Positions 29,883 through 47,492 of a stretch of 64,000 bases of DNA are shown here, piece by piece. Below the pieces are notes generated by a model. That model had not been told where the DNA came from. It ran no database searches and was given only the letters and a program-made list of their open reading frames with translations. The stretch lies in the IMG/VR virus record IMGVR_UViG_3300024351_000013, one strand, 5' to 3'. Both the position numbers and the translations under genes were made by a program. Source of the DNA: a virus (Duplodnaviria > Caudoviricetes). Position 1 is the stretch's first letter. Each line of letters starts with the position of its first letter.

Positions 29883-31232
29883 TTATTTAGGAATTTGGTC
29901 TGCTTTTAATTTAAATCCAGTTTTCTTCCACCATTCTGCAATTTGATGATAAGACCTAATATGAGCTGGACCTTGACCATCTACAATTACCCAATCATCC
30001 TTTAAACCATTAAATTCTTCACTATTGATTATACAAGTATCAAACTTTTTAATTTCTTCAACAAATAGTGGGAATGTATAAACTTTTCCCAATGAGAAAA
30101 CAAGATTTTCTACAATTGGTTGCAGATTAGATTCTGGAATATCAAAATGGAATTCGTCATCATAGTAATAAGTATCAATTATTTTTTGAGCACGCTCTCT
30201 TTTAAGGATATATGCAGTCGCAGACCAGTCATCAAATTGTCTTTCCCTAACTTTAATATCGGTCATTTGATCTCTGACCCACATAAGTTGAACGCATTCC
30301 CAATCTGAGGGTAAATTATCAACAAACTCTCCCCAAGTAAAGTTCCAATTCTTAATAGTTTCTAATGAAAGATCATCCTCACAAAAAAATCCATAAGGTT
30401 CATCTGTTTCATTTAACCACCTCTTAATACATCTCATATGAGAAGTGCAACATCCTTTACTTGCATTGGTCAAAGTGTGAACATATTGACCATGAAGAAT
30501 ATCATTACACTCTATAAATCTTTTGGATACTACTGAGTTAATTTTTTCAATATCATATTCTTTAAATTGATTTTCTAAATGAGTTCTTCTATCAATGGAT
30601 TCTTCTAAACTCAAATAATATATCGAAGGAAATCCTTTTAATTTTGTTTTATCTTCGTCAAGAAGATATGGGAAATCCATACCTAAAACATTAAAATTAT
30701 TTTTAACTGATTTTTTATGAGAATCATTCATTTGATCATAATAATCATCAACCAATATTTTAAACAATCTTCTACACTCTTCAGATTTTCCCCACCAATA
30801 TGAACAAACTGCTTTTTCAAAAATTAACCCATATTTTCCGGGATACTCAACATCGGTTCTTAGTGGTTCTTGATTAAAATCGCAAAAAGTTAAAGCTGTA
30901 TTTGAAAGTGTATATGCTTCAGTATAACTCTTATTCCACTCTTCATATCTTGAAAGAATATAATATGCTTCTGGTCTTCTTGGTAAAACAGTAATTGCAT
31001 GGTTTAGGAGACCTTTGACAGTATACCAACGGTTTCCTTGTTTGTTAAAACAATATGACATTCTAATCAAAGACTCATAAACTAAATTCAAATCATCCGC
31101 TCTATCTGCTGCCCTCAAATAATAAGAAATTGCGGATGCAGTTTGGCCCAATATTTCATATTGTACTGCAAGATTAAAATTGCTTTCAGCATTTTCTGTA
31201 TCTTGAATGTAATTATAAAGTGTATCATCCAT
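29883..31232 (-). CDS. TPR domain fused to a GT25-like glycosyltransferase domain
   Basis: N-terminal helical repeats (PRRPEAYY); C-terminal IYYLSL...DRR...GCCTSH...FFCEDD. Confidence 0.7.
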   Translation of the reverse strand: MDDTLYNYIQDTENAESNFNLAVQYEILGQTASAISYYLRAADRADDLNLVYESLIRMSYCFNKQGNRWYTVKGLLNHAITVLPRRPEAYYILSRYEEWNKSYTEAYTLSNTALTFCDFNQEPLRTDVEYPGKYGLIFEKAVCSYWWGKSEECRRLFKILVDDYYDQMNDSHKKSVKNNFNVLGMDFPYLLDEDKTKLKGFPSIYYLSLEESIDRRTHLENQFKEYDIEKINSVVSKRFIECNDILHGQYVHTLTNASKGCCTSHMRCIKRWLNETDEPYGFFCEDDLSLETIKNWNFTWGEFVDNLPSDWECVQLMWVRDQMTDIKVRERQFDDWSATAYILKRERAQKIIDTYYYDDEFHFDIPESNLQPIVENLVFSLGKVYTFPLFVEEIKKFDTCIINSEEFNGLKDDWVIVDGQGPAHIRSYHQIAEWWKKTGFKLKADQIPK

Positions 31233-32202
31233 TAATAAAATCCTCCAGAAATTGTCCAGGTACTCTTAAAACATATGCGGCATTATCTTGAAAACCAAAA
31301 GTAATCAAGTAATCTTCTTTATACTTTGCCATACCACAAGCAAATTCAATTTTTGCATTAAGGAAAGAAAACTGCTGCGAAATTTTTTGTATATTCCAGT
31401 CCTTATCCCAAAAAGTGAAACGATGCCTGTATGTTGCATCTTTCCTTCCCGCTTCACTTCTATACAAATCGGTTTCGTGATTTAGGGTTAAGTATCCACC
31501 ATTATATGACAGGACTTGAGAACCTCCTCTCAGATCTCTATTATGTTGAACCCAATTTTTAATGATTACACTTTCTGTACTGTTATTCTGGACATCAACT
31601 TTGACTATCTCTGTACCATTTGTCCACTTGACAAAGTGATAGGGCATGTCTAAGATTGGCATCCAGTTTTTATTACAATACTCTTTGTCGGGTGGAGGAC
31701 CTGGGATTCTAAATCTCGATACCTCGTTTACAGAATTTTCATTAATTTCAATTTCCGAAAGTTCCATTCTTCCGGTTCCGATAGTATCTAAATCTCTTCT
31801 AACACCACACAAAAATAATTTGCTGTCCCATTCTATCAATCTTGCATCTTCGAGACCAACAAATTCCCACAACGGTGGTTTATCAAAAGCAGATGTATCT
31901 ACTTTTGAAAAGTATGAAATATTCAAATCATCATCAAGTTCACAGATAAAATTAGTTGTTGTTAGTGTATTGTCGTTATCTGGATTTAGATACACTAAAG
32001 GACCATACGGATGTTCGTAATTTTTTAACTCCGAATGGTATAGAGTATATTGAATGTGCCTCACATTCGCTAAAATTTTATTGTCTTTAACAAGTATGGA
32101 TGGGTTACATAACCCAGTACCATTTGTTTCATTTGATGGTATTATTAATGGTTTTATTTTTCCACCATTATCTAAAACCTGCTTCACAAAGCCTACAGAC
32201 AT
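31225..32202 (-). CDS. Five-bladed beta-propeller glycosidase/phosphorylase-like protein (GH130/GH43 superfamily)
   Basis: CNPSI, GLEDARL, KNWMP, RGGSQ, IEFACG, FGFQD motifs. Confidence 0.65.
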   Translation of the reverse strand: MSVGFVKQVLDNGGKIKPLIIPSNETNGTGLCNPSILVKDNKILANVRHIQYTLYHSELKNYEHPYGPLVYLNPDNDNTLTTTNFICELDDDLNISYFSKVDTSAFDKPPLWEFVGLEDARLIEWDSKLFLCGVRRDLDTIGTGRMELSEIEINENSVNEVSRFRIPGPPPDKEYCNKNWMPILDMPYHFVKWTNGTEIVKVDVQNNSTESVIIKNWVQHNRDLRGGSQVLSYNGGYLTLNHETDLYRSEAGRKDATYRHRFTFWDKDWNIQKISQQFSFLNAKIEFACGMAKYKEDYLITFGFQDNAAYVLRVPGQFLEDFING

Positions 32203-32240
32203 AAGATCACCAGAAAATCAATTGAGATTTTAAAACTGTT

Positions 32241-32603
32241 CTATTTATTGTACATTTTTACCTCCCTATATTCGGAATTGAATTCCTCATCAATTCTTTT
32301 CTTTATGTCTGCTCTTTTATCATTAGTAATATAGACACTTCGGGCAAGTTCAATGAACTTTTTCCCAAAGTCTTTATTTTTTTCTAACTCTCTCAATTCA
32401 TCTTCAATCTTCCAAAGTTTTTGATTAACTTCCCTCAGTTCATTCATGTACTCAAGAGTGAATTGGATAAGAGTATTTTTGATTTGATTTAAGTCCTCAA
32501 GTTCTTTGAGAACATATTCATTGTTAGTAAACATAGACTTAATTTCAAGAATCGAAATTTTATCTAATAGTTCACCTACTGATACTGGAATTGTAATCTT
32601 CAT
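32241..32603 (-). CDS. Conserved hypothetical protein (DUF6165-like) found in glycosylation loci
   Basis: IPVSVGELLDKISILEIK...VNQKLWKIEDELR...ARSVYITNDKRA. Confidence 0.7.
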   Translation of the reverse strand: MKITIPVSVGELLDKISILEIKSMFTNNEYVLKELEDLNQIKNTLIQFTLEYMNELREVNQKLWKIEDELRELEKNKDFGKKFIELARSVYITNDKRADIKKRIDEEFNSEYREVKMYNK

Positions 32604-33895
32604 GCTATTTTCTTATAAGAATCAACAGTCTCTTCTATAAATTCAATCATCTGGTCGTTTATAGTTGGGGAGCATCCAATAAAAAATACATTCTCAAGAA
32701 CTTTCATTGCATTTGGATAATCAAATCCAGAACCAAGATGTCGGTAAGCTGGATGAATCAAAAGATTGCCTGCAAAATAATTTCTTGTTTGTATCTTGTT
32801 ATCTTCCAAGTGCTTAACAAGTTTCTCCTTGTTAGTATTGCATACAATCGGAACACCAAACCAACTTGTTTCAGACTGCGGTAACTCATCAATCACTCTT
32901 ACTCCAGGAATAGATTCGAAGATTTGATGAATTCGTGCCTTATTATATCTGCGAAGATAATGAATTTCATCAAACTTTTTAAGTTGCACTGAACCGATTG
33001 AACCAAGCATATCAATTGGTTTGAGATTATAACCAATTTGTCCGAAGATGTACTTATGGTCTACAACCTTATCATATCCAACTAACCATTTATCAAATCT
33101 CTTACCACAAGTTCCACAAGAAAGAAGATTTTGTGAACCAACGCAATAGCAATCTCTTCCCCACCAAGCAAAACTACGAGCAATATCAATCACTTCTTTA
33201 ATATTAGAAGACACCATACCACCTTCAATCGTTGTAATATGATGTGCTGGATAGAAAGAACAAGAAGATGCAACAGAGTAGTCTGTAAGATACTTACCTT
33301 TCCATTTACTTCCAAGGCTATCGCAGTTATCAGAAATTAACTCAAGTTTATAACGATCACAAATCTCAAGTAGATAATCAAAGTTATATGCATTTCCGAG
33401 AACAGGTGAAGAAAATACTGCTCTTGTTCTTGGGGTTATTTTGGATTTAAGTTCATCCAAATTCCAATTCAAATCAGTATAATCAATATCAACAAAGACT
33501 GGTTTTAGATTGTTTTGAAGGATGGGATTAAGAGTAGTTGGAAATCCACAAACAGATACAATAATTTCATCACCATCTTGCCAATCAAAATATTTCTTGA
33601 GAGCAGCAATCATTACAAGATTTGCTGAGCTCCCAGAATTTACCATTACTGAATGTTGAAAGTTAAACTTCTGTGAGAATTCTTTCTCAAACTTATTCAC
33701 TGCCTCACCGGAAGATAACCACTTTCCAGTCAGGAAGGTTTTCATTGCAACTTGAATTTCTTCGTGATTCCAGTAGGGACCAGAGTAAAAAATATTTGAT
33801 TCTCCCTTCACATAATCATTATTATAGAGATACTTAAAGAAAGATTCATCACTTTCAAAAAGGTCATCAATAAATTGCTTTACTTGTTCTTTCAT
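32600..33895 (-). CDS. rfbH: RfbH/AscC-type CDP-4-keto-6-deoxyglucose 3-dehydrase (DegT/DnrJ superfamily)
   Basis: VNSGSSANL, DNCDSLG, SFYPAHHITTIEGG (His at the usual PLP-Lys position), WGRDCYC...CGTCGKRF Fe-S motif, YDKVVDHKY, RNYFAGNL. Confidence 0.88.
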   Translation of the reverse strand: MKEQVKQFIDDLFESDESFFKYLYNNDYVKGESNIFYSGPYWNHEEIQVAMKTFLTGKWLSSGEAVNKFEKEFSQKFNFQHSVMVNSGSSANLVMIAALKKYFDWQDGDEIIVSVCGFPTTLNPILQNNLKPVFVDIDYTDLNWNLDELKSKITPRTRAVFSSPVLGNAYNFDYLLEICDRYKLELISDNCDSLGSKWKGKYLTDYSVASSCSFYPAHHITTIEGGMVSSNIKEVIDIARSFAWWGRDCYCVGSQNLLSCGTCGKRFDKWLVGYDKVVDHKYIFGQIGYNLKPIDMLGSIGSVQLKKFDEIHYLRRYNKARIHQIFESIPGVRVIDELPQSETSWFGVPIVCNTNKEKLVKHLEDNKIQTRNYFAGNLLIHPAYRHLGSGFDYPNAMKVLENVFFIGCSPTINDQMIEFIEETVDSYKKIA

Positions 33896-33897
33896 TT

Positions 33898-34665
33898 TTA
33901 ATTCACAATATAGGAGAAATTTTCTTCAAGACAACCTTGCCAAGCTAATTGTAAAATTCTTTCAAACCAATGTGCTTCTACGGGATTGTCATTATAATCA
34001 GTATAATACATCATTTTTTTATAAAAGTTTTTGCTGTACTTTAGGATGCAATTTTTTGGTACGGCATAATTTGCTGCGGGAGCAAAACTTATAAATTTGG
34101 GAATTTGGTAATCTTCTATAATAAACAAGTCTTTCATGAATTCCAGAAAATTAGAGATTCTAGGATAAGTTTTTGCTTTTCTAAAATCTTCTTCCGAAAA
34201 AACACACCCCATTGTGTAGTTTTTTAATTCCCACTCTATGGGTAGAGAAAACAAATTGTTATTTAAAATATAAGGAAAATTATTTTGAATATGATTTCCA
34301 CCATCAATAGGAACAAACCAATTCGCTTTTAGAGCATATATAAATCTCTTCTCTGTTGTATATGAAGTTTTTCCATTTGGGGGTTCTTTTTTTAATAGAT
34401 TTCCTTTGATGTGAATCATCATGTCCGGAAGATTGTCATAGTGGTCTACAATAAATCTACCGATATCATAAGGATTTGAACCAACATTAGGTGAAGGTAT
34501 AACTTTTCCTAAGTGACATATCTTCGATTTATTCGGAAAATCGTTAGGCGTTCGATCGTAAATAAGAGTATTTTCTGGAGAAAATCCATAGTCATAAGTC
34601 ATTTTTAGCCACTCTAAGTCATGATTAGAATGATTACTGACTACAAGAATTTTTGATATTGACAT
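33898..34665 (-). CDS. Hypothetical protein (DUF3431-like, glycosyltransferase-associated)
   Basis: LVVS..HDLEWL, PNVG..YD...FIVDHYDNLPD.MIH, F.PAANY.V, HWFERI. Confidence 0.55.
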   Translation of the reverse strand: MSISKILVVSNHSNHDLEWLKMTYDYGFSPENTLIYDRTPNDFPNKSKICHLGKVIPSPNVGSNPYDIGRFIVDHYDNLPDMMIHIKGNLLKKEPPNGKTSYTTEKRFIYALKANWFVPIDGGNHIQNNFPYILNNNLFSLPIEWELKNYTMGCVFSEEDFRKAKTYPRISNFLEFMKDLFIIEDYQIPKFISFAPAANYAVPKNCILKYSKNFYKKMMYYTDYNDNPVEAHWFERILQLAWQGCLEENFSYIVN

Positions 34666-34686
34666 AGTAAATGATTATATGGTTTA

Positions 34687-35511
34687 CTATAACATATTGC
34701 AAAGCATATGCAAACCGTATTTAAAATTAATTTGTGGTTCGAATTTGAGAGACTTTAATTTGTCGATATTCAAAGTCATATTTTTAATTTGAATATATTG
34801 CTGATTAGTTGGTATTGGAACACTAATTAATTTACTATGACTATTTGTAATACTTTTTGCTGTTTCTATAATATATTTAAAGTTATTTGATGTTCCCGAA
34901 GCAATATTATAAATTTCGTTGTGGTGTCCAAATTCCAAAATTATCTCAATTGCTTTACATACATCTTCAACAAACATATAGTCTTTTAAATAATCTCCGT
35001 TATCATAAAGATGAACATCTTCATTTTTCTTCAATTGTTTTATGATATGTGCCAGGACATTTTTCTTCAAAGAAATTGTTTTATCCAATCCATAAACATT
35101 TCCAATTCTTAAAATTCTATATTTAATATTAAAGGTCTTGCAAAAGGAAATTAATAATTGCTCTGCACATCTTTTTGTTACAGAATAAAATCCAGTTGGA
35201 TTGCAATTATCAGTTTCTTTTGCATCTATAATATCATTACCATAAACAAAACATGAACTAATAAAATTAAATGTGATGTCTTTATCTTTGCAATTGGATA
35301 AGACATCCATCAGAAAATTTAGATTAGTGTTTATATCTATATGAAGATCATTAAAAACATTTTGATTTGTGGTGGTGCTTATAAAATATAAAACTTCTTT
35401 GGTATCAAATTCTATACTTTGCTTTGGAATTATATTTACTTTTTGTGAGTATAATCTACAAAATGTTCCTCCAATAAATCCAGTCCCCCCAAAAACTGCT
35501 ATTTTACTCAT
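34687..35511 (-). CDS. NAD-dependent epimerase/dehydratase (extended SDR)
   Basis: GGTGFIG Rossmann motif, YSVTK catalytic YxxxK, LRIGNVYG. Confidence 0.9.
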   Translation of the reverse strand: MSKIAVFGGTGFIGGTFCRLYSQKVNIIPKQSIEFDTKEVLYFISTTTNQNVFNDLHIDINTNLNFLMDVLSNCKDKDITFNFISSCFVYGNDIIDAKETDNCNPTGFYSVTKRCAEQLLISFCKTFNIKYRILRIGNVYGLDKTISLKKNVLAHIIKQLKKNEDVHLYDNGDYLKDYMFVEDVCKAIEIILEFGHHNEIYNIASGTSNNFKYIIETAKSITNSHSKLISVPIPTNQQYIQIKNMTLNIDKLKSLKFEPQINFKYGLHMLCNML

Positions 35512-36479
35512 ACAAAATTCATGTGATTACTATCATAAAGACTCTTTATCGCTTGAGTTCTTTCTGGATAAGTTAAAGTTTCTGGATTAAATCCTGTTGC
35601 AAAGATAATAATATTTGGATTTTGTGTGAGTTTTCCAATTTCTAACAAGTGATTAAATGCTTTTCCTAGAAGTCCTCCACCAAAATTCATTGCTTCACTG
35701 AGTGCATGGAAAGCATAGTTTGCAGACTTTTCTACCTCTTTAAGATTAACTAAACAAATACTACACATGATGAACACATCAATCCTTTGTGGATCAAAAT
35801 ATGCTTTGGAGATATTGAGATATTGTTGACCTACCTCAAGTACTTTATTGAGATTTTTGACCTGATAGTAGTGCTTAAAAATAAACCAAAGATAATAATT
35901 ATTTTCTGGATTATTTTGATATTCTCTCTCGCAGATTGAAAGATAGAAAAGTTCTTTATCAATACTTGGTTGAAGGTTTTTAGTAATCTTAATTGTAGTA
36001 TCTACTGCAACCTCACCAAGATGTTCTTCAGTTGGAAGAAACATTGGAGTTTCGTGAACTGCATTTACCCAAGTATAGTTTTTAGTTCTATGAAAACGAA
36101 CATGTGCAGTTTGACCTAGAGTTGGTTCTTCATCATCAATTTTATCATACCTTTCATGTTTAAATGTTGTAAACTCTTCAGAGATTACTGCAAGACCCTC
36201 TGGGAAAAAATCATCTATTTCTTCATTAAAATCTATAGAAAAAGCCCAATCAGTTTCCACATAAGATAATGCCTGATTTCTTGCTACTGAAAAATCAAAC
36301 TCTGCACGAGTCTGTGGATGCTCGTAGACTTTAATACCAGCATCTTTAAGTAGTTGAATTGTATTGTCTGTACTTCCAGTATCGACTACAACGACATCAT
36401 CAAATTTCTCTGCATTCTTGAGAAACTTTTCAATATTTTTTTCTTCGTTCTTTGCGATTGCGTATAGTGTAACTTTCAT
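35508..36479 (-). CDS. GT2 glycosyltransferase with C-terminal TPR-like helices
   Basis: IAKNEEKNI, VVVDTGSTDNT, DFSVARN, IDFNE, AVHE; helical C-terminus. Confidence 0.85.
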   Translation of the reverse strand: MKVTLYAIAKNEEKNIEKFLKNAEKFDDVVVVDTGSTDNTIQLLKDAGIKVYEHPQTRAEFDFSVARNQALSYVETDWAFSIDFNEEIDDFFPEGLAVISEEFTTFKHERYDKIDDEEPTLGQTAHVRFHRTKNYTWVNAVHETPMFLPTEEHLGEVAVDTTIKITKNLQPSIDKELFYLSICEREYQNNPENNYYLWFIFKHYYQVKNLNKVLEVGQQYLNISKAYFDPQRIDVFIMCSICLVNLKEVEKSANYAFHALSEAMNFGGGLLGKAFNHLLEIGKLTQNPNIIIFATGFNPETLTYPERTQAIKSLYDSNHMNFV

Positions 36480-36487
36480 TTTAATCC

Positions 36488-36839
36488 TCACTTGTTGTTT
36501 TTAATAATTTCTGATTTATTAGGACCCCATCCACTATGAGGATTGATGAAGGTTTGATAGAAGTCGTATGTACCGCGAATTATCAGCAGTGTAATTATTT
36601 TGATTGAATCCTGGATAACCCATTAAAAACAATCCAGGAGGATTTTTAAGTGTAACCATTAAGTTACACTCTACCAATCTTGCCTTAATTCCTTCTTTAT
36701 GTAAAAGTTTAAGTACAATATCACTCATACTCAAACAATATCCAGAACCTGCTTCGGTCATTCCAGATTTATGAAGACCATCTACAACTCCCTTAATAAT
36801 GTTAAAATATTCAGTTTCAACTACAGGATGATTTTTCAT
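36488..36839 (-). pseudogene. Probable internally deleted hypothetical gene
   Basis: The frame starting MKNHPVV ends at 36534. A second frame LIIRGTYDFYQTFINPHSGWGPNKSEIIKNNK* (36586-36488) ends next to the downstream gene start. Confidence 0.45.
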
Positions 36840-36841
36840 AA

Positions 36842-37408
36842 TTATTTTTCCCAAGCATTATCGTAATGATGTAAAGCAGTTGTTTTTTTATAACCAAGAG
36901 TTTTGAAAATATTTTCTATTTCATGTTTTTTATCACCAAGATGTAATTCTTCATATTCAATTCTTTGAATATCATAATTATTCCAATCTGTTGTTAATAA
37001 AATTTCAGAGTCAATTCCTTCAATATCCAATAGTAACCAATCCAATTCCTTGATATCATACTTTTCAAATAATTGATTTATAGTTATACAAGGAACTTCA
37101 AAATATCTAATTCCGTCACTTGGATAATAAATTTCAATATGAGACTTCACACAAGAAGCGACATGGTACATTGGACCATCATTTTGATGATAATAAAGTT
37201 TTAATGTGTCTTCATTGTAAGAAGGAACTTTAATTGCAACATTCTCAATAACAGAATTTTGATATTGAGAATAGCAATTTTTTAAATTTCCAATATGTAG
37301 TGGATTTGCTTCAACAAAAAGTCCAAATTCTAATTCATTATAATTTTCTTTGAGATGTTTAGATAAATCATCATCACCTTTATTAGAACCAATTTGAACT
37401 ACTTTCAT
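36842..37408 (-). CDS. FkbM-family SAM methyltransferase
   Basis: VQIGSNKG, FVEANP, ENVAI, VPCITINQLF, LLLDIEGID. Confidence 0.8.
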   Translation of the reverse strand: MKVVQIGSNKGDDDLSKHLKENYNELEFGLFVEANPLHIGNLKNCYSQYQNSVIENVAIKVPSYNEDTLKLYYHQNDGPMYHVASCVKSHIEIYYPSDGIRYFEVPCITINQLFEKYDIKELDWLLLDIEGIDSEILLTTDWNNYDIQRIEYEELHLGDKKHEIENIFKTLGYKKTTALHHYDNAWEK

Positions 37409-38103
37409 AAAAACTTTTTCCAATCAATACAAGGTGATAATAAATCTGCTTGACAATGTGTAGAATAACCAGGAAGTGATGATATTAAAACTCTTCCTCT
37501 CTGTGCTAACTCCAGAAATTTTTGGTGGTCCGCAGAAGGTTCCACACCTGTAGAATATTTAGTGTGCGTGTAAAAGTCCTCTACAAGAGTTGAATACTTC
37601 ACAGCAAATGTATTGGTTGTTGAAGGAGTTGCCATCCAATGACAAGAATCTGTAAATAAAACTTTAGTTCGGAACTCTGCATAATACTCACCATACTTGT
37701 CTCTGTGGTCGTACAAGGTCGCATAAGAGATGGGAAGGGCGAATGCCTCTAACAGAACTTTATCCCACCCTGGTTGATGAATATAATCATCTTCCAAGAA
37801 GTAAATGATATCATCTTGAGAATGATTTTGTGTTTTAATATACTTCAAAGTTTCTATAAAGCTCTTTGCTTCTCCGCCGCAATTGATCGTATATATATTT
37901 TCTTCATTTGATAGGAAAGTATCTTCTATCTTTCCATAATGTTCGTCATAAATGATTGCGTATTTTGTTGTTTCTGGATTGAGAGTATTTTTGAAGTTTT
38001 GGAATACCTTTTCTTTGTCCCACCAAGAAGGTCTTTGTTTTCCAGGACTCTCTTGAATTTTGGAATAATAGCAATGTCTCAAATAAACATTAATTTTTGT
38101 CAT
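37405..38103 (-). CDS. GT-A fold glycosyltransferase-like protein
   Basis: IIYFLEDDYIH DxD-like motif; STTNTFA. Confidence 0.6.
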   Translation of the reverse strand: MTKINVYLRHCYYSKIQESPGKQRPSWWDKEKVFQNFKNTLNPETTKYAIIYDEHYGKIEDTFLSNEENIYTINCGGEAKSFIETLKYIKTQNHSQDDIIYFLEDDYIHQPGWDKVLLEAFALPISYATLYDHRDKYGEYYAEFRTKVLFTDSCHWMATPSTTNTFAVKYSTLVEDFYTHTKYSTGVEPSADHQKFLELAQRGRVLISSLPGYSTHCQADLLSPCIDWKKFL

Positions 38104-38105
38104 TT

Positions 38106-38786
38106 CTAAAAAGGATAATTGGGTGTTTGTATTGTTGTTTCTCCTGGTTCATCATATGCATAAAATCCATATTGAATAATCGTAAATAGATTAGCGTGCA
38201 TAAACTCATCGTTCATTGTAGTAATACCATCAACCAGAAGACGAGAAACCATTAACTTCGCAACAGCAGGGTCAATTGCATATGCATGTGCCCGACCTAT
38301 TTTACGAGTGAAAGTATCAGGTGATTGCATATGAATTGGAGTTGGTTGAACGGACATCCCATTATACTTCTGTTCCTTACAACCAAGATATGTGATTGCA
38401 TTATAAAAAGGATAGGGACCAAAAAATTTCTCTACCATTATAGCATCGTGCTCTAATATAACGATAGGTCTATCTATTGTGATACAATGAAACCACAAAC
38501 TAAAGTGAGATAAGCAACACCCAATTTGAGATGGTGTCATAAATTTATGATTGACCTTCAACCATTTCAAGTAATCTTTGTCTTGAAGATGTTTCGGTAT
38601 TACAATTTCTCCAGAAGAACCATCAAAACCTTCCCAAAGAGTATAAGGTTGCTCTACTGCAATACAACTCTCTATACATCTTTGAGTTAAGGTCTTTGAA
38701 GTTTCATTATTTGGTAGAGTAATAATATAAGTATTTTCTATAAAAGAATTCTCTGTTGGATAAAAACTTTCTAATGTTCGCTTCAT
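38106..38786 (-). CDS. GT25-like glycosyltransferase
   Basis: YIITL, FDG, QIGCCLSHFSLW, IVILEHDA, AHAYAI. Confidence 0.75.
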   Translation of the reverse strand: MKRTLESFYPTENSFIENTYIITLPNNETSKTLTQRCIESCIAVEQPYTLWEGFDGSSGEIVIPKHLQDKDYLKWLKVNHKFMTPSQIGCCLSHFSLWFHCITIDRPIVILEHDAIMVEKFFGPYPFYNAITYLGCKEQKYNGMSVQPTPIHMQSPDTFTRKIGRAHAYAIDPAVAKLMVSRLLVDGITTMNDEFMHANLFTIIQYGFYAYDEPGETTIQTPNYPF

Positions 38787-39382
38787 TCTAAATTGCCTGA
38801 TATTGAAATTCTATAATCATCACTTGTAGAAAATGGATAGACGCAATGAGATAAATGTGCTGGGAACAATACTATTCTACCACACCAATCCTCATTGACA
38901 TATAAGGTTTCTAAAGTAAGTTGTCCTAAAATATTTGGATAGATGAATTGGAAAGTTGATGCTGCTTTTGCTTTTGTATCTTTTACATGAGCCGCATTCA
39001 ACTCTTCTTCTACTTTGTATGGAATTTTTAACCAGCAAACAAAACTAAAAGTGCTGCTGTGATGGTGAATTGGATTAAACTCATTCTTCTTTTGAAAATT
39101 GACCCACAGATGAGTGAGTTTAAAGTCACTTGGTTTTTTGTAGAAATTCCAATAGTCTGTATATGACTTACACATTTCATTGAGATATGGTTGCAAAACT
39201 AACATAGACTTTTGCAACTCATATTGATTTTCTATATTTCCTGCAAGACCATTATTGTAATTTGAATGAGAATGAAAATCAGAAGAGATTTCATTTACTT
39301 CATTCATTACTTGATTATAAAGTTCTTCTGGAAGAACACCAGATGTGACACCGGGATTTGGTAATGATATATGACTAAACAT
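38783..39382 (-). CDS. 2OG-Fe(II) oxygenase (cyanophage-type)
   Basis: WVNFQKKNEFNPIHHH, LFPAHLSHCVYPF, RISISGN. Confidence 0.85.
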   Translation of the reverse strand: MFSHISLPNPGVTSGVLPEELYNQVMNEVNEISSDFHSHSNYNNGLAGNIENQYELQKSMLVLQPYLNEMCKSYTDYWNFYKKPSDFKLTHLWVNFQKKNEFNPIHHHSSTFSFVCWLKIPYKVEEELNAAHVKDTKAKAASTFQFIYPNILGQLTLETLYVNEDWCGRIVLFPAHLSHCVYPFSTSDDYRISISGNLE

Positions 39383-40178
39383 AGGTTTTTAATTTCTCCA
39401 AATCATATTCATTCCACCAAGACTTCCAATCAATAAAGAAGTCTCTATCATATTCTCCTTGCATATGTAGTGCTAAAGAAGGAATTGGAGTAAAGCAGAA
39501 ATGTCCTCTTTCATAATAAACCCTACAAATACTATCCATTTCCATCGTTTCACTTACCTCACTTGTTCCCATTTTGTGGAACAAGTCCCAGTGCTTTCTA
39601 ATAATATCAACATGAGTCATTAAAGTCACTGCTACATGAAAATTAGTTCTCCAATATCTATCTTTTGATACTACAAGATGACAAGGAACTGCAGTGTTTT
39701 CTGCTTCGTGATACTCTGCTGGCTTATTGAATGGAAAGATACTTGCAGGAGAACCTAGATTACAACTAAACTGATTAATTGCATGTATCATCAGTTCAAC
39801 AGAGTCTTGTTGATGAAGAAAATCATCTTGAACATAATAGACCCAATCTTTTCCATAATCTCTTCCATGTTCGTAGCACCTCAAAATAGATGGCATAATA
39901 CCATAAGTCTCAAGATGGGTTAGATTAACTTTGAACTTTGCAATGCTGATAAGTTTTTCTAAAATATCTAAAAATTCTTTGTCCGAGTGGTCATCAAAGA
40001 TTTGAAGTTCTATTTCATAATCTGGATAATGTTCTTGTGCGTAATTGAGACTATCAATCAAAGAAAAGATACACCTTGAAGAAACTTCGATCTTTGGTGC
40101 TTCACAATATCTTCCAGAATCTTTATCTCGGTTTCCTTTTGAATGAGTCTGGACGACAACTAACAAATGAGTTTTCAT
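39375..40178 (-). CDS. GT-A fold glycosyltransferase-like protein
   Basis: IFDDHS, WVYYVQDDFLH, PIPSLALH. Confidence 0.6.
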   Translation of the reverse strand: MKTHLLVVVQTHSKGNRDKDSGRYCEAPKIEVSSRCIFSLIDSLNYAQEHYPDYEIELQIFDDHSDKEFLDILEKLISIAKFKVNLTHLETYGIMPSILRCYEHGRDYGKDWVYYVQDDFLHQQDSVELMIHAINQFSCNLGSPASIFPFNKPAEYHEAENTAVPCHLVVSKDRYWRTNFHVAVTLMTHVDIIRKHWDLFHKMGTSEVSETMEMDSICRVYYERGHFCFTPIPSLALHMQGEYDRDFFIDWKSWWNEYDLEKLKTYV

Positions 40179-40957
40179 ATATCAAACTTGGAATAAAGTT
40201 TTATATTCTCTTCTCCTATTACTTCAATAGGATTTTGTGAAATTTTGGCAAGATTTGGACGAATATCATGAAGCCCTCTAAGTCCCCATTCTTCGTCCTT
40301 TTGTTCTCCACAAGCATTTTCAATGTTATTGAAAGTATTTGTATGAGATGGAACTTCTAAAAACTCATAGATTTTACTCAGTTCTTCTTCTGGATTATTG
40401 ACTAGAGCATTATATTCAACTAAATGAACCCAATCTGGATATTTGTTGAGTCCATAAACCATACTCTCATAAGAAGGAGCAACATAATATCTCCAAATAT
40501 ATTCTGCACGATTATTATTTGTAATTGGTAGATTATCATTCCTTAAATGATTATCAATGAAATTATCATAGTGCTTTGACCTTTCTATGAGTGAAATATA
40601 AGATGTAAGAACTTCTGGAATAGAACGATAAGTTGCTACAATTTTTGGTTTGTTGGAAAGAAACATTTGAACGGTATCAAGATTCTTTCCCCAAAACCGA
40701 TGCTTATCTAGAATTGTTGATTTTGGAATGTGATTATAAAAGTTTGCAAGAACTGCCTTATAGACATTATACGAAATTGCCTTGCGGTCAAAGGTAAATT
40801 GGATATCTAAAGTATTAAATGATTTCTCAATATCAGTTACTACATCACCTAATGGAGATGTTGGTGATACATAAATGTCTGGATGTTGATTGAGAAGTGA
40901 CCCAAGTAATGTAGAACCACTTCTTGGAAGTCCTCCAAGAAAATATAATGTCTTCAT
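40175..40957 (-). CDS. PAPS-dependent sulfotransferase
   Basis: GLPRSGSTLL 5'-PSB loop, NQHPD, DKHR, RSIPEVLTS, VEYNALVNNPE. Confidence 0.85.
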   Translation of the reverse strand: MKTLYFLGGLPRSGSTLLGSLLNQHPDIYVSPTSPLGDVVTDIEKSFNTLDIQFTFDRKAISYNVYKAVLANFYNHIPKSTILDKHRFWGKNLDTVQMFLSNKPKIVATYRSIPEVLTSYISLIERSKHYDNFIDNHLRNDNLPITNNNRAEYIWRYYVAPSYESMVYGLNKYPDWVHLVEYNALVNNPEEELSKIYEFLEVPSHTNTFNNIENACGEQKDEEWGLRGLHDIRPNLAKISQNPIEVIGEENIKLYSKFDI

Positions 40958-40981
40958 AGTTTATTTCTTTCTTATTATGTA

Positions 40982-42661
40982 TTATATCACAGGATCGATG
41001 TATGTGAGTGCTACCGAAAACCTATCTCCACTAGAAACTTGTTTCCAGTTGGTTCCTCCTGCGAATGTAGTGATTGGAGTTGATTTACTAGTACCAGAAC
41101 CATTGATTCCCTGTTGTCCATTAGAATTATCACCCCAAGTCCATAAAGTTCCATCGGTCTTGATTGCTATTGTAATACGACATATATTAGAACCACTACA
41201 ACCAACTTGTTTCCAGTTGGTTCCTCCTGCGAATGTAGTGACTGGAGTAGATGCATCGTTTCCAGCACCAGATCTAGTGATTCCTAGTTGTCCCTCATAA
41301 TTACGACCCCAAGTCCATAAAGTTCCATCAGTTTTGATTGCTGCTGTATGATAACCACCACCAGAAACTTGTTTCCAGTTGGTTCCTCCTGCGAATGTAG
41401 TGATCGGAGTGGATACATTAGTATTTGAATTGTTTCCTAATTGTGCAGAAGTATTATAACCCCAAGTCCAAAGAGTTCCATCAGTTTTAATTGCTGTAGA
41501 AAAACTACCTCCATTACTTATTTGACTCCAATTAGTCCCTCCAGCAAATGTTGTGACTGGAGTTGATCTATTACCAGTAGCATTAATTCCAAGTCTTCCA
41601 AAAGATCCATCACCCCAAACCCATAAAGTTCCATCAGTTTTGATTGCCGCTATATGGCCTCTTCCGGCAGTAACTTGTTTCCAGTTGGTTCCTCCTGTGA
41701 ATGTAGTGACTGGAGTTGATTTATTATCTGTTGCAGCGTTTCCCATTTGTCCGACAAAACCACGACCCCAAGACCATAAAGTTCCATCAGTTTTAATTGC
41801 TACAGTAGAACGATAACCTCCAGCATTAACTTGTTTCCAGTTGTTTCCTCCTGCGAATGTAGTGACTGGAGTTAATTTATTGGTTGTTGTACTGTCTCCT
41901 AGTTGTCCAGTATTATTACTACCCCAAAGCCATAAAGTTCCATCCGTTTTAATTGCTGCAGTATGAGTGTCTCCACAAGAAAGTTGTTTCCAATTGGTTC
42001 CACCAGCAAATGTTGTGATTGGAGTGAGTTTACCAGTTGTTGTATTGTCTCCTAGTCGTCCATCAGAATTAGTGCCCCAAGTCCATAAGTTTCCTTCACG
42101 AAACAAATCAGCAGGAACAAAAACATTATCAAAACTATAAGTCAATCCATCATTACCTGTTACTATACTTCCATAGGTTGGAACATAAACACCAGCAGAA
42201 GATTTTCTTTCTATTTGAACTCCCCAAAAATCAAGAACAAGATTTGTATTGTTATCAGAATATAAGTCAATAAAACTTTTTGCGGTTGCTGTTGGAACTC
42301 CACTTGTAGTTACTCTTACCCACTGATTAGTAATTAATTGTGATGAGTAATCAACTGAAGGACTTCCATCTGCTAAATCAGTAAATGCACTACCAGTTCC
42401 ACTAATTCTCCTTACAAAAAAACTTGTCGTATAAGTATCAGTTCCGTTGGGAGTGAATGAAGGAAAATTAACTCTTAATAATGCATTAGTTGTATTATTG
42501 CATGTAAATCTAATTGCTGTATTTGTTCCATCAGGTGCAGTTATTCCTGTAGTTATTGTTGCACCTGCGGGAAAATTATTAATCCACGTAACAGTCCCTT
42601 CATAAGTGGAATATGCCACTAAATTTTCTCTATTGTTGATAAAATTATAAAATACTGGCAT
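40982..42661 (-). CDS. RCC1/BLIP-II seven-bladed propeller with an N-terminal carbohydrate-binding-like insert
   Basis: Seven repeats of GTLWxWG...GQLG...STPVTTFAGGTNWKQV...HTAAIKTD. Confidence 0.9.
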   Translation of the reverse strand: MPVFYNFINNRENLVAYSTYEGTVTWINNFPAGATITTGITAPDGTNTAIRFTCNNTTNALLRVNFPSFTPNGTDTYTTSFFVRRISGTGSAFTDLADGSPSVDYSSQLITNQWVRVTTSGVPTATAKSFIDLYSDNNTNLVLDFWGVQIERKSSAGVYVPTYGSIVTGNDGLTYSFDNVFVPADLFREGNLWTWGTNSDGRLGDNTTTGKLTPITTFAGGTNWKQLSCGDTHTAAIKTDGTLWLWGSNNTGQLGDSTTTNKLTPVTTFAGGNNWKQVNAGGYRSTVAIKTDGTLWSWGRGFVGQMGNAATDNKSTPVTTFTGGTNWKQVTAGRGHIAAIKTDGTLWVWGDGSFGRLGINATGNRSTPVTTFAGGTNWSQISNGGSFSTAIKTDGTLWTWGYNTSAQLGNNSNTNVSTPITTFAGGTNWKQVSGGGYHTAAIKTDGTLWTWGRNYEGQLGITRSGAGNDASTPVTTFAGGTNWKQVGCSGSNICRITIAIKTDGTLWTWGDNSNGQQGINGSGTSKSTPITTFAGGTNWKQVSSGDRFSVALTYIDPVI

Positions 42662-42666
42662 TTCTT

Positions 42667-43032
42667 TTATTTTGGAGGAATCTCTACAAAAACAACTGGA
42701 GTATTCATTTTTTCACTCCAGTTTTGAAGATATTGTTTAACTTCAGAATTCATTTCTTTATTATTTATTGGAAGAACTTTTAGATATTGACCATCTCCAC
42801 TTCCCTCAACAGAGACCAGAACATCACACTTATCAGGTCGCATTTCTTCTGGTAGTAAATGCTGCGTCCAAGCACATTGATAGTCTCTACAAGATTCTGG
42901 TCGTGCCTTATGAACTCCACAACCATTACATTCCAGATACTTACAAGACTTTCCTGCACCAAACTCCCAAGCAAAAGCATCACCAATCAACCAAGTACAA
43001 CAAGCAGTACATTCTCCACATTCACGAAACAT
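42667..43032 (-). CDS. Cys-cluster protein (YkgJ/FliB-like, zinc or Fe-S)
   Basis: CGECTACC...C..L...GC.VH..RPESCRDYQCAW. Start placed at ATG 43032. Confidence 0.7.
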   Translation of the reverse strand: MFRECGECTACCTWLIGDAFAWEFGAGKSCKYLECNGCGVHKARPESCRDYQCAWTQHLLPEEMRPDKCDVLVSVEGSGDGQYLKVLPINNKEMNSEVKQYLQNWSEKMNTPVVFVEIPPK

Positions 43033-43678
43033 AATCATCCTCCTTATAATAGTAAGTATATGAATCAAAAATTCCCGGTTGGTATATTGTTTTTGGATTT
43101 GAATTTGGATTACTTCCAATCCAAAGTTCTCTATCTATACGATAATCACTATAAAGAAACTTATGGTCTAGTGTTTGGATATGTTTGGCATTGGACCACC
43201 AAAAATTTCCAGTAAAATTATAAGTTCCTTCTAATGGTTTGGTGGTTGTACCATCAGACCATAAAGTTTCTCCCACAGAATTTAGATTTGAACCAACACA
43301 ATCATATTCATCCAACATTTCCACACACTCTTTCCACCTATCAATTACAAAATACTCCATCATCAATCTCCAAGCATTTGCAATCAAAGTTCCTTTGCTT
43401 GCTCCCTTAGTGTGAAAATACAAAATTTTATAATCCGGATTTTCATGCGCAAAATCTTTTAATGCAATCATCGTTTCCGTTTCTTCTGTCCAATTTTTAT
43501 TGTAAACGACTTTTGCTTTTGTTGGTATATAAAACATTTCTTGGCTGCCATTTACTCCAATATGAAAATGATCTATTTTATTCATTAGACCAGATACAAA
43601 TAATCGATTAATCTGTTGTTGGTAGATAAATGCGGAAATTTCATTTTGAAATGTATGATAAAAAACTGCTAACTTCAT
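43022..43678 (-). CDS. Hypothetical protein, putative glycosyltransferase-like
   Basis: ILYFHTKG, YDCVG, FTGNFWWS, ELWIG motifs. Confidence 0.55.
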   Translation of the reverse strand: MKLAVFYHTFQNEISAFIYQQQINRLFVSGLMNKIDHFHIGVNGSQEMFYIPTKAKVVYNKNWTEETETMIALKDFAHENPDYKILYFHTKGASKGTLIANAWRLMMEYFVIDRWKECVEMLDEYDCVGSNLNSVGETLWSDGTTTKPLEGTYNFTGNFWWSNAKHIQTLDHKFLYSDYRIDRELWIGSNPNSNPKTIYQPGIFDSYTYYYKEDDYVS

Positions 43679-44463
43679 GTATGATACACCCCACCATTTT
43701 CGCCAGACATCCCCTTTACCATTGTAAGACCAAGATTTGGAACACTAATGATATTGTTCTTGTTTATAAATCGATAAAGTGAATGTTCTACATCAGTTCC
43801 AGAAGTAAATTGTATCATTTTTTCCATATAAGTAAATGCCCCTTCAAGAGCCTCAACCGCTTCATTAAATAAAACTCTATCAAAAGACCAAAGACCAGTA
43901 TTCATCATACCTTTTGCACCATATAAGTATGCATAGACATTTTCAAGATTACTTTCATTGAAACTTTCACCTTCTTCCAAAAGATAATCGTATTTTTTTA
44001 CAATATATTTTCCTTCCAGAAACTTACTTTCATAATCTTTAATATCAAAATGATCATTCAATAAGTATCTACCAGTAAGTTTAAAAACTCTTTGACTATC
44101 AGTGAATAGATTGTGCTGTTTAATTTCATAAAGAGTATTGAGTAATCCTCTTGTTTCCAACAATGATTTGCCATAAGTAATCAATTCTGGTCTTTCTTCA
44201 AGATTTTCATAAATTTGCTTTAGTACTGGTTCATCATAAAACTCTAAAAACAAATCTGATTTTTCTTTAAGAATATCTTTTTGTTTCTCATCAATAGGTT
44301 TAGAAGAACACTCAAATAAAACCACATAAGACTCTGAAACTTTCTTACGAATACATTCAATCGTTTCTAATGTTTGATTGAATCTCTGTTCTTCATTATA
44401 AGCACTAAACTCATCCTCTTTAAAATGTTTGAGTGCTGAACCGACTAAAAATAAAAATTTCAT
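43675..44463 (-). CDS. Hypothetical protein, putative glycosyltransferase-like
   Basis: QRFNQTLETI..IRKK, GKSLLE, VFKLTGRYLL, DVEHSLY motifs. Confidence 0.5.
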   Translation of the reverse strand: MKFLFLVGSALKHFKEDEFSAYNEEQRFNQTLETIECIRKKVSESYVVLFECSSKPIDEKQKDILKEKSDLFLEFYDEPVLKQIYENLEERPELITYGKSLLETRGLLNTLYEIKQHNLFTDSQRVFKLTGRYLLNDHFDIKDYESKFLEGKYIVKKYDYLLEEGESFNESNLENVYAYLYGAKGMMNTGLWSFDRVLFNEAVEALEGAFTYMEKMIQFTSGTDVEHSLYRFINKNNIISVPNLGLTMVKGMSGENGGVYHT

Positions 44464-44918
44464 AAGTAATCTGTATTAAAACTAATAATAATTCTTTCTT
44501 CTGTTTCTTCTTCCGTATAATGAACTAAATCACTTGAGAAGATAACCAACAATCCAGGATAAGGTTTAATTGATGTATCTGGAAAAATGAGTGGAGTGCT
44601 TCCAGAAATATAAAATGCTCCACTTATAATACTTTCTCCATGATTATGTGCTTTGAGTTTATTTCCTGGTTGTGAGATATTGAACCAACTATTGATAAAC
44701 TTTAGAGGTGAAATCTCATACTTATTACAATACAGTCTAACATATTGCTTAAGAACATTTCTTAATCCAGTCAGTTCTGAATACATTAAAGTAGGCATTC
44801 CATGATTATAAGTAGAAACACCTTTTGTTATAAGTCCGTGAGAAGCAGTTTCTATTTCAAGAAGTTTGCTCTTGATGGTATTTAGATTTAAAAAAGAAAG
44901 ATTATATTCCTCTATCAT
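44460..44918 (-). CDS. 2OG-Fe(II) oxygenase (cyanophage-type)
   Basis: SWFN...HNH...SGAFYI, LVIFSSDLVH, RIIISFN. Confidence 0.8.
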   Translation of the reverse strand: MIEEYNLSFLNLNTIKSKLLEIETASHGLITKGVSTYNHGMPTLMYSELTGLRNVLKQYVRLYCNKYEISPLKFINSWFNISQPGNKLKAHNHGESIISGAFYISGSTPLIFPDTSIKPYPGLLVIFSSDLVHYTEEETEERIIISFNTDYL

Positions 44919-46251
44919 TCAAAAACTCTCCTAGTTGCTTCAGTGGTTCATCCCAGTTTCTTGGTTTCTTTTGTCGGAACAGATGAATATTATCTCCATA
45001 CCACATACACTTTCCTGTAGAGGAAGTCCAAACATAATATTCCATAATAGGAACAAAGACACAGACTTCTTTACCCATTGATGCTGCTACATGTGCCACA
45101 AAACTACAAGAAGTCACTACCAAATCAAGGTTCTTGATGATTGAGAATGTGTCGGCATATTCTCTATTAGGAACTGATAGTGATTGTTTGATTTCGGGAT
45201 ACTCATTGGCATCCTTATTATCACTGTGAGTTTGAAGTGAATAAAGTGAGTATCCTTTGTTTCCAAGAACACTCATATAGTCTTTGAGTTCTACTGAACG
45301 GAAAGTGTTCTGCTCGAACCCAGAACTAGAAGCCCAGAACATTCCAACCTTATATCCAGTGTCTTCTTTTATCCACTCCCATTTCTTATCGTATTCTGGG
45401 AGTGTTTGGAGATAAGGTTCTCTTCCCATATCTTTGAGTTGCAGATTGAGATAATATGGAAGTGCCAGACCATAAACCCAGAAAGCATCTTTAGGAAACT
45501 CTGGTTTATCCCAAATACAAACAGCATCATATCCATTATGTTTGAAGAGTTCTACAAGTTCTCTGCGAGTAGAACTCCAAATTGGTTTCATTCCCAAGTC
45601 TTTGAGGTGTTTCATAAACCGAATATGAATGACTTCATCACCGGCGCCACATTGATTATCTACAATGATCGTTCTTCCTGGCGTCACTGTTCCATCCCAT
45701 TTTTCAAAATCGGGATGTTTTTGATTCTTATATGCTTCTACTTCCCCTGCTTTGAGAAAGTGTTGAAGTCCCGTATGAATATCATCCTTACGGAAATAAT
45801 GTCCTGATAGATTATGATATGCTTTTCTTTCAATCTCTTCTGGTAGTTTATATTTGAGAAGATTGAAGAGTAGTTTTTCTGACTTCTCTTTTTGATTGAG
45901 TGCAGAATACGCGAAGGTTTCCTCAAGAAGCAATTCAGTATCTTGCGGATTTATCTTCTTGCACTTATCAATTTGGGTAATAGATTTCTCTGGATGATTT
46001 GATTGATTATATGCATTAATCAAATTCATAGAGGTCGTATATTTTTCTTCTTTTGTTTGTGCTAATTTGAGAGACTTTTCTCCATACTCAATTGCCTTGG
46101 AGAAGTTCTTAAGTTCAAAAAATATTTTTGCTACATCATTATATTGAGAAAAAACTTGTGCTTGTTTTCCAAAGGCATCAAGTAATTCGAATGTTAGTTG
46201 CTGTTCTTTAAATGAATATAATGTCTTTGCTACCAATTCAAGTGGGTTCAT
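44902..46251 (-). CDS. TPR protein fused to a GT-B (GT9-like) glycosyltransferase domain
   Basis: N-terminal TPR helices; QCGAGDEVIHIRF, DLVVTSCSFVAHVAASMGKEV, WYGDNIHLFRQ. Late promoter motif CTAAATA at 46274-46280. Confidence 0.8.
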   Translation of the reverse strand: MNPLELVAKTLYSFKEQQLTFELLDAFGKQAQVFSQYNDVAKIFFELKNFSKAIEYGEKSLKLAQTKEEKYTTSMNLINAYNQSNHPEKSITQIDKCKKINPQDTELLLEETFAYSALNQKEKSEKLLFNLLKYKLPEEIERKAYHNLSGHYFRKDDIHTGLQHFLKAGEVEAYKNQKHPDFEKWDGTVTPGRTIIVDNQCGAGDEVIHIRFMKHLKDLGMKPIWSSTRRELVELFKHNGYDAVCIWDKPEFPKDAFWVYGLALPYYLNLQLKDMGREPYLQTLPEYDKKWEWIKEDTGYKVGMFWASSSGFEQNTFRSVELKDYMSVLGNKGYSLYSLQTHSDNKDANEYPEIKQSLSVPNREYADTFSIIKNLDLVVTSCSFVAHVAASMGKEVCVFVPIMEYYVWTSSTGKCMWYGDNIHLFRQKKPRNWDEPLKQLGEFLNDRGI

Positions 46252-46285
46252 ATTGAATAATTTATTTTGTAGGTATTTAGATACC

Positions 46286-47491: not shown

Positions 47492-47492
47492 A

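Follow-up and report, generated by a model that had tools for sequence, protein, structure and literature searches.

The window analysed here is a 64,000-nt stretch of DNA from a tailed virus (Duplodnaviria; Caudoviricetes; IMG/VR record IMGVR_UViG_3300024351_000013), and our subject is an island of sugar-related genes at positions 29883-46251. The island holds 20 open reading frames (ORF01 to ORF20), all on the minus strand and separated by gaps of -19 to +42 nt, in agreement with the original prediction, made from the sequence, of about 20 tightly packed, co-oriented genes; all long ORFs of the window lie on this strand. The phage is an S-SRM01-like freshwater cyanomyovirus, and the island lies within its late structural block. 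Matches to sequencing runs assign the DNA to riverine metagenomes dated 2018-2019. In megablast, the sole near relative was Synechococcus phage S-SRM01, a 240.8-kb member of the Kyanoviridae from a freshwater reservoir, which covers 16% of the island at 82% identity and carries the island core genes. We assigned families with Pfam, NCBIfam and PHROGs, adding an Atlas feature search and PDB sequence and fold searches for some ORFs. Nearly all of the families listed in the prediction were recovered. For at least five glycosyltransferase (GT)-like ORFs and two or three weaker ones, we found five solid (ORF01, ORF08, ORF10, ORF14 and ORF20) and three weaker candidates (ORF03, ORF04 and ORF11). The proposed RfbH, short-chain dehydrogenase/reductase (SDR), FkbM methyltransferase, sulfotransferase, two 2-oxoglutarate (2OG)-Fe(II) oxygenases and Cys-cluster protein correspond to ORF17, ORF15, ORF12, ORF07, ORF02/ORF09 and ORF05, respectively.

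The first gene of the island, ORF01 (44902..46251), encodes a tetratricopeptide repeat (TPR) arm (about residues 1-175) joined to a compact GT-B domain, and its product is a candidate protein O-glycosyltransferase resembling FlmG. FlmG, the flagellin O-glycosyltransferase of Caulobacter crescentus, has 596 residues, with its TPR domain at the N-terminus and its GT-B domain at the C-terminus; it is both required and sufficient for the O-glycosylation of flagellins in the cytoplasm, and it binds its acceptor through the TPR domain (PMC7591256). A structure model of ORF01, built with 27 homologues (pLDDT 89.2, pTM 0.84), has ten TPR-type helices (residues 3-173) followed by a compact two-lobed Rossmann domain. 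Among the AFDB Swiss-Prot models, Caulobacter FlbA (P21296) was by far the best match (E 2.4e-17, TM 0.76, residues 8-446 against 132-592, Foldseek identity 16%). We infer that P21296 is FlmG, because it has 596 aa like the FlmG of PMC7591256 and because the flbA papers are cited for the same gene. The top PDB fold matches were SPINDLY, OGT, a TPR-bearing capsule multienzyme and GT9 enzymes, and the GT-B domain matched GT9 3tov, WaaC 2h1f (TM by target about 0.5) and the catalytic regions of OGT and SPINDLY. At the sequence level, the TPR arm gave sub-threshold Pfam scores and consensus-TPR matches in PDB at about 1e-4, and the Atlas feature search placed residues 175-449 in GT9 at 0.96. Against the GT9 lipopolysaccharide (LPS) heptosyltransferase family (PF01075), ORF01 scored 11.4 bits (E 0.19), below the Pfam gathering score of 22. 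On the basis of the FlmG, SPINDLY and OGT fold matches, modelled ORF01 has the architecture of a protein O-glycosyltransferase, and transfer to Ser/Thr is predicted.

ORF01 is also the best-conserved gene of the island, with 84-93% identity across related loci, compared with 40-67% for most others and 76-93% for a few in single loci. Among its relatives, conservation is higher in the TPR half (77%) than in the GT half (66%), a pattern that fits a fixed acceptor and changing donors. A pattern scan of prokaryote genomes for ORF01 relatives found none. Many HMMER matches were giant proteins of 1200-3100 aa carrying three to nine tandem ORF01-like stretches; P0363 (3114 aa, with tandem matches), the one giant looked up, comes from a metagenome-assembled genome of an Oscillatoriales cyanobacterium, and such tandem matches suggest that the ORF01 module has also been multiplied in very large proteins. 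The parallel with FlmG, which extends to a soluble cytoplasmic protein superposing over the whole length of ORF01, has clear limits: ORF01 is shorter (449 aa against 596 aa), a phage has no flagellin, and the island lacks matches to pseudaminic or legionaminic acid genes, with no NeuB-, PseI- or PseF-type match in its 20 ORFs. A further difference is that ORF01 pairs or fuses with a CxxCxxCC domain, none of which has been described for FlmG.

This CxxCxxCC domain is encoded by ORF05 (42667..43038), a metal-binding protein of about 122 aa whose true start, judged from orthologues, is an internal ATG near 43038. Eight Cys are invariant in its family. Of 13 family members, 7 matched PF03692, each with a score under the gathering threshold; the window copy was not among them, and the CxxCxxCC protein next to the ORF01 relative P0380 has an unmarked precomputed PF03692 match. 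An exhaustive HMMER search with ORF01 yielded 569 representatives at E < 1e-30, among them a subset of 583-606 aa that aligns to ORF01 from about residue 130 on. In the 606-aa member P0377, a CxxCxxCC-TPR-GT fusion, residues 1-140 match ORF05 at 40% identity (2e-32), and the fused form was seen in at least eight divergent 50%-identity phage protein clusters, that of P0377 and seven others that start alike. Because the two are fused in divergent phage clusters, ORF05 and ORF01 appear from these alignments to be partners, parts of one machine. A sulfotransferase-TPR-GT fusion, also considered, was rejected: the N-terminal extensions of the ~600-aa ORF01 relatives examined are CxxCxxCC domains.

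The remaining glycosyltransferase candidates are of varied strength. ORF03 (43675..44463) is GT-A-like by fold: its model (pLDDT 79, pTM 0.81) has a GT-A nucleotide-sugar transferase fold matching glycogenin and alpha-1,3-GalT in PDB at about 1e-5, and its AFDB cluster matches include GT8 and NDP-sugar transferases as well as giant-virus proteins that fuse the domain to GT47 or GT1. ORF04 (43022..43678) belongs to the virus-typical DUF8361 (Atlas 0.98, with a weaker RgpF lead; no match in Pfam and PHROG searches) and is a possible glycosyltransferase. ORF08 (39375..40178) is GT2-like (Pfam 26.1 bits, cut-off 23.3), ORF10 (38106..38786) is a GT25 enzyme (Pfam 1.2e-13, 52 bits), and ORF11 (37405..38103) is weakly GT-A-like, with a Pfam GT2 E value of 0.018 around an EDD motif. 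ORF14 (35508..36491) combines GT2 (Pfam 3.2e-10, 41 bits; phrog_13126 1e-37; a weak SunS-type match) with a C-terminal extension of no family, and ORF20 (29883..31232) is a TPR and GT25 fusion (Pfam GT25 2.8e-8, 34 bits, plus TPR; phrog_2835 5.8e-47).

Enzymes that could tailor a glycan or its acceptor are interspersed with them. Both oxygenases belong to PF13759, a family for which we know of no characterised substrate: ORF02 (44460..44918; Pfam 1.1e-12, phrog_81 1e-21) overlaps ORF01 by 17 nt, and ORF09 (38783..39382; Pfam 2.2e-11) is coupled to ORF10. ORF07 (40175..40957) is a sulfotransferase dependent on 3'-phosphoadenosine-5'-phosphosulfate (PAPS; Pfam Sulfotransfer_3 4e-15) whose PDB sequence matches are confined to the PAPS loop of TPST, and ORF12 (36842..37423) is an FkbM-family methyltransferase (Pfam 8.5e-12). 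The predicted GH130-like propeller turned out to be ORF19 (31225..32202), a GH130/DUF377-like protein. Its homologues, which number more than 4300, come from contigs of cyanophage size and bear the JGI name GH43/DUF377; a few carry PF04041. The family fold is a five-bladed propeller. PDB sequence searches of ORF19, ORF20 and ORF09 gave no match. The set is completed by ORF13 (36534..36854), a 106-aa protein with no family match that was found in a single other locus (L018), ORF16 (33898..34665; DUF3431, Pfam 1.6e-7), ORF18 (32241..32603; DUF6165/DUF4254, Pfam 1.7e-10), which is present in most loci, and the RCC1 protein ORF06, discussed below.

Two genes may act in the synthesis of a sugar donor. 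ORF17 (32600..33895) has the DegT fold and is an E1/RfbH-type NDP-4-keto-6-deoxyhexose 3-dehydrase rather than an aminotransferase (PDB 3bcx, 4e-69): His replaces the Lys that forms the Schiff base with pyridoxal phosphate (SFYPAHHIT), and the Fe-S Cys cluster (RDCYC...C..C) aligns to that of 3bcx. Its score against the NCBIfam RfbH equivalog NF011936, 368.9 bits, is under the cut-off of 423; on the PseC and LegC aminotransferase models it reaches 144 and 131 bits against cut-offs of about 420, below its own RfbH score. ORF15 (34687..35511), the only SDR, is a short NDP-sugar epimerase/reductase with GGTGFIGG and YSVTK motifs (Pfam Epimerase 1.2e-29) that scores 95 bits on the dTDP-glucose 4,6-dehydratase model, whose cut-off is 365 bits. 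With the CDP-3,6-dideoxyhexose pathway (Yersinia E1/RfbH, PDB 3bcx/3bb8) the island thus shares the His-for-Lys exchange and Cys cluster of ORF17, and ORF15 is a possible C4 reductase; it differs in having no cytidylyltransferase, 4,6-dehydratase or E3 reductase among its ORFs and in that ORF17 stays below the equivalog cut-off. The prediction of a complete sugar kit did not hold, since neither the nucleotidyltransferase families of NDP-sugar activation nor the E3 reductase family found a match among the island ORFs.

The position and company of these genes bear on their possible targets. Along the minus strand, the window runs from an S74-chaperone fibre, a PKD protein, a 2068-aa giant protein and three LamG proteins to an RCC1 protein (394 aa), a DUF4376 tail-fibre-like protein (222 aa) and a second RCC1 protein (401 aa), then through the island from 46251 to 29883, and on to DUF5661, DUF6321, the large terminase, sheath, tube and portal. 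The predicted location between the terminase and the fibre, LamG and RCC1 genes is therefore right as to order, although the DUF5661 and DUF6321 genes intervene before the terminase and an RCC1 gene, ORF06, also lies inside the island. The RCC1/DUF4376/RCC1 trio directly upstream of the island (46286..49363, minus strand) encodes candidate acceptors. ORF06 (40982..42661) encodes a 559-aa protein with a seven-repeat RCC1 propeller (Pfam RCC1 3.7e-62), and its N-terminal 170 residues match the phage head spike fiber family NF048003 of NCBIfam (73.5 bits, cut-off 36), which makes it a candidate virion fibre and a candidate acceptor as well. When the literature was searched for RCC1 proteins in virions of cyanophages, the only matches were 'RCC' numbers of a culture collection.

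The company of RCC1 genes recurs beyond this lineage. Counting the window lineage as one context and locus L023 together with the P0380 contig as another, an RCC1 gene lies within about 6 kb of ORF01 relatives in five of seven separate contexts. The marine single-virus genome AG-345-E08, whose ORF01 relative is only 23% identical, encodes on one strand a giant fibre, two RCC1 proteins, the TPR-GT protein, a third RCC1 protein, a GT25 enzyme, two 2OG oxygenases, a CxxCxxCC protein and a DUF8361 protein, and its adjacent 2OG oxygenase and GT25 genes are 39-49% identical to those of the island. Two loci with the fused form (L027 and L028; 34% identity) have three RCC1 genes and a DUF4376 gene directly before the enzyme. 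On the P0380 contig, the enzyme is preceded by two large RCC1 proteins, a sulfotransferase, a CxxCxxCC protein and a 182-aa protein with no recorded family, and in L023 by two sulfotransferases, a CxxCxxCC protein and a methyltransferase. In BUCT-ZZ01, a GT-domain homologue is located between tail-fibre and BNR genes, and in the 6-kb contig L029 only a methyltransferase gene stands beside the ORF01 relative. We also observed, in the T4-like phage locus L027, an adenosine-5'-phosphosulfate kinase gene (PAPS synthesis; 8265-8687) right after the fused CxxCxxCC-TPR-GT gene.

The pairing of a 2OG oxygenase with a GT25 enzyme recalls the hydroxylase and glycosyltransferase logic of collagen modification, as in lysyl hydroxylases (PLOD/LH3), GT25 collagen galactosyltransferases and the Mimivirus protein L230. 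ORF09 and ORF10 share this arrangement, as does locus L030 (123-2557), where a PF13640 2OG oxygenase (Oxy_3) is followed by a 621-aa GT25/GT_PLOD protein adjoining an RCC1-like gene and a fused TPR-GT gene. The 2068-aa ORF of the window (52974-59180, minus strand) contains collagen-like G-[L/T/S]-Q tracts at 54633-54893 (29 triplets) and 57561-57848 (32 triplets). In these G-X-Y repeats, L, T or S fills the X position and Q nearly every Y position, and Lys and Pro are absent. This is a difference from the collagen systems, as is the membership of the island oxygenases in PF13759. It is possible that the Thr/Ser-rich triple-helix segments of this fibre are themselves O-glycosylation sites; the RCC1 proteins, ORF06 and the 2068-aa protein are thus all possible acceptors. 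A collagen idea for the two genes downstream of the island was rejected, both products being Lys-rich DUF5661/DUF6321 proteins. These genes (27997-29868; DUF6321, 494 aa with 13 Cys, and DUF5661, 124 aa) lie between island and terminase, a place in which one might look for the small terminase subunit, with an AT skew of -0.26. Elsewhere in the window, in the head-gene region, a long minus-strand ORF at 15100-15918 shares 263 nt with another at 15656-17101, which may reflect a mis-called start or a programmed feature.

The island is likely to be expressed late, a view that we draw from its position and from promoter-like motifs. The motif NATAAATA is the published late promoter of cyanomyoviruses (PMC2984593), and CTAAATA is the late motif of phage Aeh1 (PMC1524935). 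Across the whole window, 21 copies of NATAAATA lie on the coding strand and none on the opposite one; the corresponding counts for CTAAATA are 7 and 0. Of the 21 NATAAATA sites, 10 are at most 60 nt upstream of a start codon, and sheath, tube and portal are among the genes preceded in this way. Both late motifs of the original prediction are where it placed them on the minus strand: CTAAATA (46274..46280, read 46280-46274) is 29 nt upstream of the ORF01 ATG and recurs in 9 of the 14 different upstream sequences of orthologues, and a second late-promoter-like motif, AATAAATA (32242..32249), with ATAAATA at 32248-32242, lies upstream of ORF19. In six riverine RNA runs, 98-99% of the sampled words of 36400-46300 were present, in contigs with breaks like those of the DNA run, and these data are not indicative of transcription or timing.

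A late setting among fibre genes is a poor fit for DNA hypermodification, in which the glycosyltransferases would decorate modified phage bases against restriction. T-even phages and others do glycosylate their DNA, and such a role has been suggested for cyanophage glycosyltransferases (PMC12801897). We nevertheless regard it as very improbable here: the TPR arms, the sulfotransferase and the dideoxyhexose genes, like the late fibre position, do not suit an early, replication-coupled role, the island has no base-hydroxymethylase or related gene, and cyanomyoviruses are not known for hydroxymethylcytosine or DNA glycosylation (PMC2984593).

More weight must be given to remodelling of the host envelope, in which LPS, O-antigen or sulfated exopolysaccharide of the infected Synechococcus would be altered through host membrane machinery, possibly to block superinfection, keep progeny off debris or change grazing. 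This serious rival, which we judge rather unlikely, is the published reading for the sugar clusters of P-SSM2, S-SM2, S-SSM7, S-SCSM1 and S-SCSM2R (PMC3037559, PMC2984593, PMC12801897). It gains from the GT9-like, GT25, GT2, RfbH and SDR genes, which are typical of LPS and O-antigen loci, and from the incomplete pathway, which implies reliance on host sugar metabolism. What speaks against it is, first, the make-up of the island itself. ORF01 is built as a protein glycosyltransferase, and its TPR arm is conserved beyond the GT half; no membrane helix was predicted in any of the 20 proteins (maximum KD19 1.45), and Pfam and NCBIfam found no Wzx, Wzy, WaaL, flippase, polymerase, ligase or priming-transferase family among them. 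Second, the genes belong to the late fibre module, with an RCC1 adjacency that persists across deep divergence, and late expression would leave little time for rebuilding an outer membrane.

Comparison of 22 IMG/VR loci and S-SRM01, which together represent the window lineage, revealed a conserved order of RCC1, fibre-like, RCC1, ORF01, 02, 03, 04, 05, (06), 07, 11, 14 and 18, with ORF01-05, 07, 11, 14 and 18 as the core kept across the lineage. By contrast, ORF08, ORF09 with ORF10, ORF12, ORF13, ORF15 with ORF17, ORF16, ORF19 and ORF20 are present, absent or relocated among loci. For instance, ORF08 was found in none of the related loci, the ORF09-ORF10 pair also occurs in L009, L013 and marine AG-345-E08, and RfbH and the SDR sit between ORF04 and ORF05 in L021. 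Core genes vary too: ORF11 is 64-67% identical in nearly all loci, and ORF03 exists in at least three divergent allelic classes of 262, 255 and 243 aa with a mutual identity of 41-53%. The GC content at 34001-36000, the SDR/GT2 section, is 0.285, against 0.36-0.38 in the flanks, which suggests that cassettes were gained recently. Cassette swapping around a kept core would yield particle 'serotypes'. One low-depth contig of the RNA-library run X12 skips 939 nt at 36479-37419 (ORF12-ORF13), and one of its flanks measures just 29 nt; a strain lacking the FkbM cassette may be its source, for which it is weak evidence.

Such variability could also mean that the targets are mixed, with only the core of ORF01, ORF05 and ORF07 modifying protein, and the RfbH/SDR, GT25 and GH130-like cassettes being independently acquired metabolic genes for host glycans or storage sugars, or partly decaying cargo. 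Close loci that differ in their cassettes and in the positions of these, as in L021, would agree with this, as would the low GC at 34-36 kb and the wide distribution of ORF19 homologues in cyanophages whatever the context. Yet all 20 ORFs are intact, co-oriented and tightly coupled, ORF15 and ORF17 retain their catalytic motifs, and the 2OG oxygenase-GT25 pair recurs in a marine phage at the identities given above. We therefore think it improbable that the targets are divided in this way.

Taken together, the architecture of ORF01, its fusion to ORF05-like domains, the company of RCC1, sulfation and oxygenase-GT25 genes, the all-soluble set of proteins and the position in the late fibre module support the view that the island serves cytoplasmic O-glycosylation and glycan tailoring of virion surface (fibre) proteins with swappable sugar cassettes, a reading to which we give about an even chance. 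Its likeliest targets would be the RCC1 propeller and fibre proteins whose genes lie next to the island or within it. The TPR arm of ORF01 would grip a phage structural protein and its GT-B domain would add the first sugar, together with the CxxCxxCC protein ORF05; the GT-A-type ORF03, ORF08, ORF10, ORF11, ORF14 and ORF20, and perhaps ORF04, would extend the glycan. ORF17 and ORF15 could convert a host-made NDP-4-keto-6-deoxyhexose into a 3,6-dideoxyhexose donor, ORF12 might methylate and ORF07 sulfate the glycan, and the 2OG oxygenases might hydroxylate acceptor residues or sugars.

Several points weigh against this interpretation. Neither glycans nor sulfate nor modified peptides are on record for any virion of the lineage. 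The likeness of ORF01 to FlmG, as modelled, is structural only, and no nonulosonic-acid pathway was found among the island ORFs, whose own sugar pathway is without activation, 4,6-dehydration and E3 reductase steps. The GT9, GT25, GT2 and RfbH families are classically those of LPS and O-antigen synthesis, and the absence of membrane helices is shared by peripheral LPS glycosyltransferases. No RCC1 gene was present among the ORFs examined in L023 and L029, and RCC1 synteny could in part be general conservation of T4-like structural modules. Because the CTAAATA motif before ORF01 shares nucleotides with the stop codon of the RCC1 gene upstream, part of its conservation stems from coding sequence; in 4 of the 14 different orthologous upstreams, a TATAATA-type sequence takes its place. 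The original claim of particle-directed glycosylation gains plausibility from the FlmG architecture, the RCC1 company, the ORF05 fusion and the lack of an LPS membrane or export component; its complete kit does not hold, and its lateness is read from motifs and position. It is tempting to go further and propose, tentatively, that in several lineages of T4-like cyanophages a three-part CxxCxxCC/TPR/GT-B engine, split or fused, primes O-glycosylation of RCC1 fibres, followed by extension, methylation, sulfation and perhaps attachment through hydroxylated residues, with cassettes generating virion 'serotypes' that tune adsorption, aggregation and evasion of grazers and defences; this broader model is possible, if doubtful.

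As a cluster of glycosyltransferase and NDP-sugar genes in a large T4-like cyanophage related to S-SRM01, the island is a cyanomyovirus sugar island. Like the published 'LPS' or cell-wall clusters of P-SSM2, S-SM2, S-SSM7, S-SCSM1 and S-SCSM2R (PMC3037559, PMC12801897), it has many glycosyltransferases, NDP-sugar epimerases and a GH130-type gene in a T4-like cyanophage exceeding 200 kb; unlike it, these lie near hli/phoH and tRNA genes rather than the fibre module, and no linkage of TPR-GT-B, CxxCxxCC, sulfotransferase and RCC1 genes has been described for them. The gene content is thus of a known kind, and its core is already contained in the published S-SRM01 genome, in whose paper the island is undiscussed. 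In the literature searched, we found neither the linkage of an FlmG-like enzyme with CxxCxxCC, RCC1 and sulfation genes nor a virion-directed reading. Mycobacteriophages are reported to encode glycosyltransferases for which their own capsid and tail proteins are the acceptors (Freeman et al. 2023, as cited in PMC12801897 and PMC12619734). Those phages infect a host of another phylum, and the present island, known from genes alone, has about 8-10 GT-like genes as well as methylation, sulfation and oxidation.

The role of the large cyanomyovirus sugar clusters has been in question since 2005-2010, including whether they are functional or 'stuffer DNA' (PMC3037559), and this island offers a testable answer for one lineage with a cultured member, S-SRM01. 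If the broader model is true, at least the fibre-linked class of cyanophage sugar clusters would consist of virion-decoration genes and not of host 'LPS genes'; should phage enzymes glycosylate and sulfate the fibres, virion glycosylation would extend from mycobacteriophages to abundant aquatic phages, adding a new layer to the biology of host range and adsorption as well as a soluble, modular toolkit for protein glycosylation.

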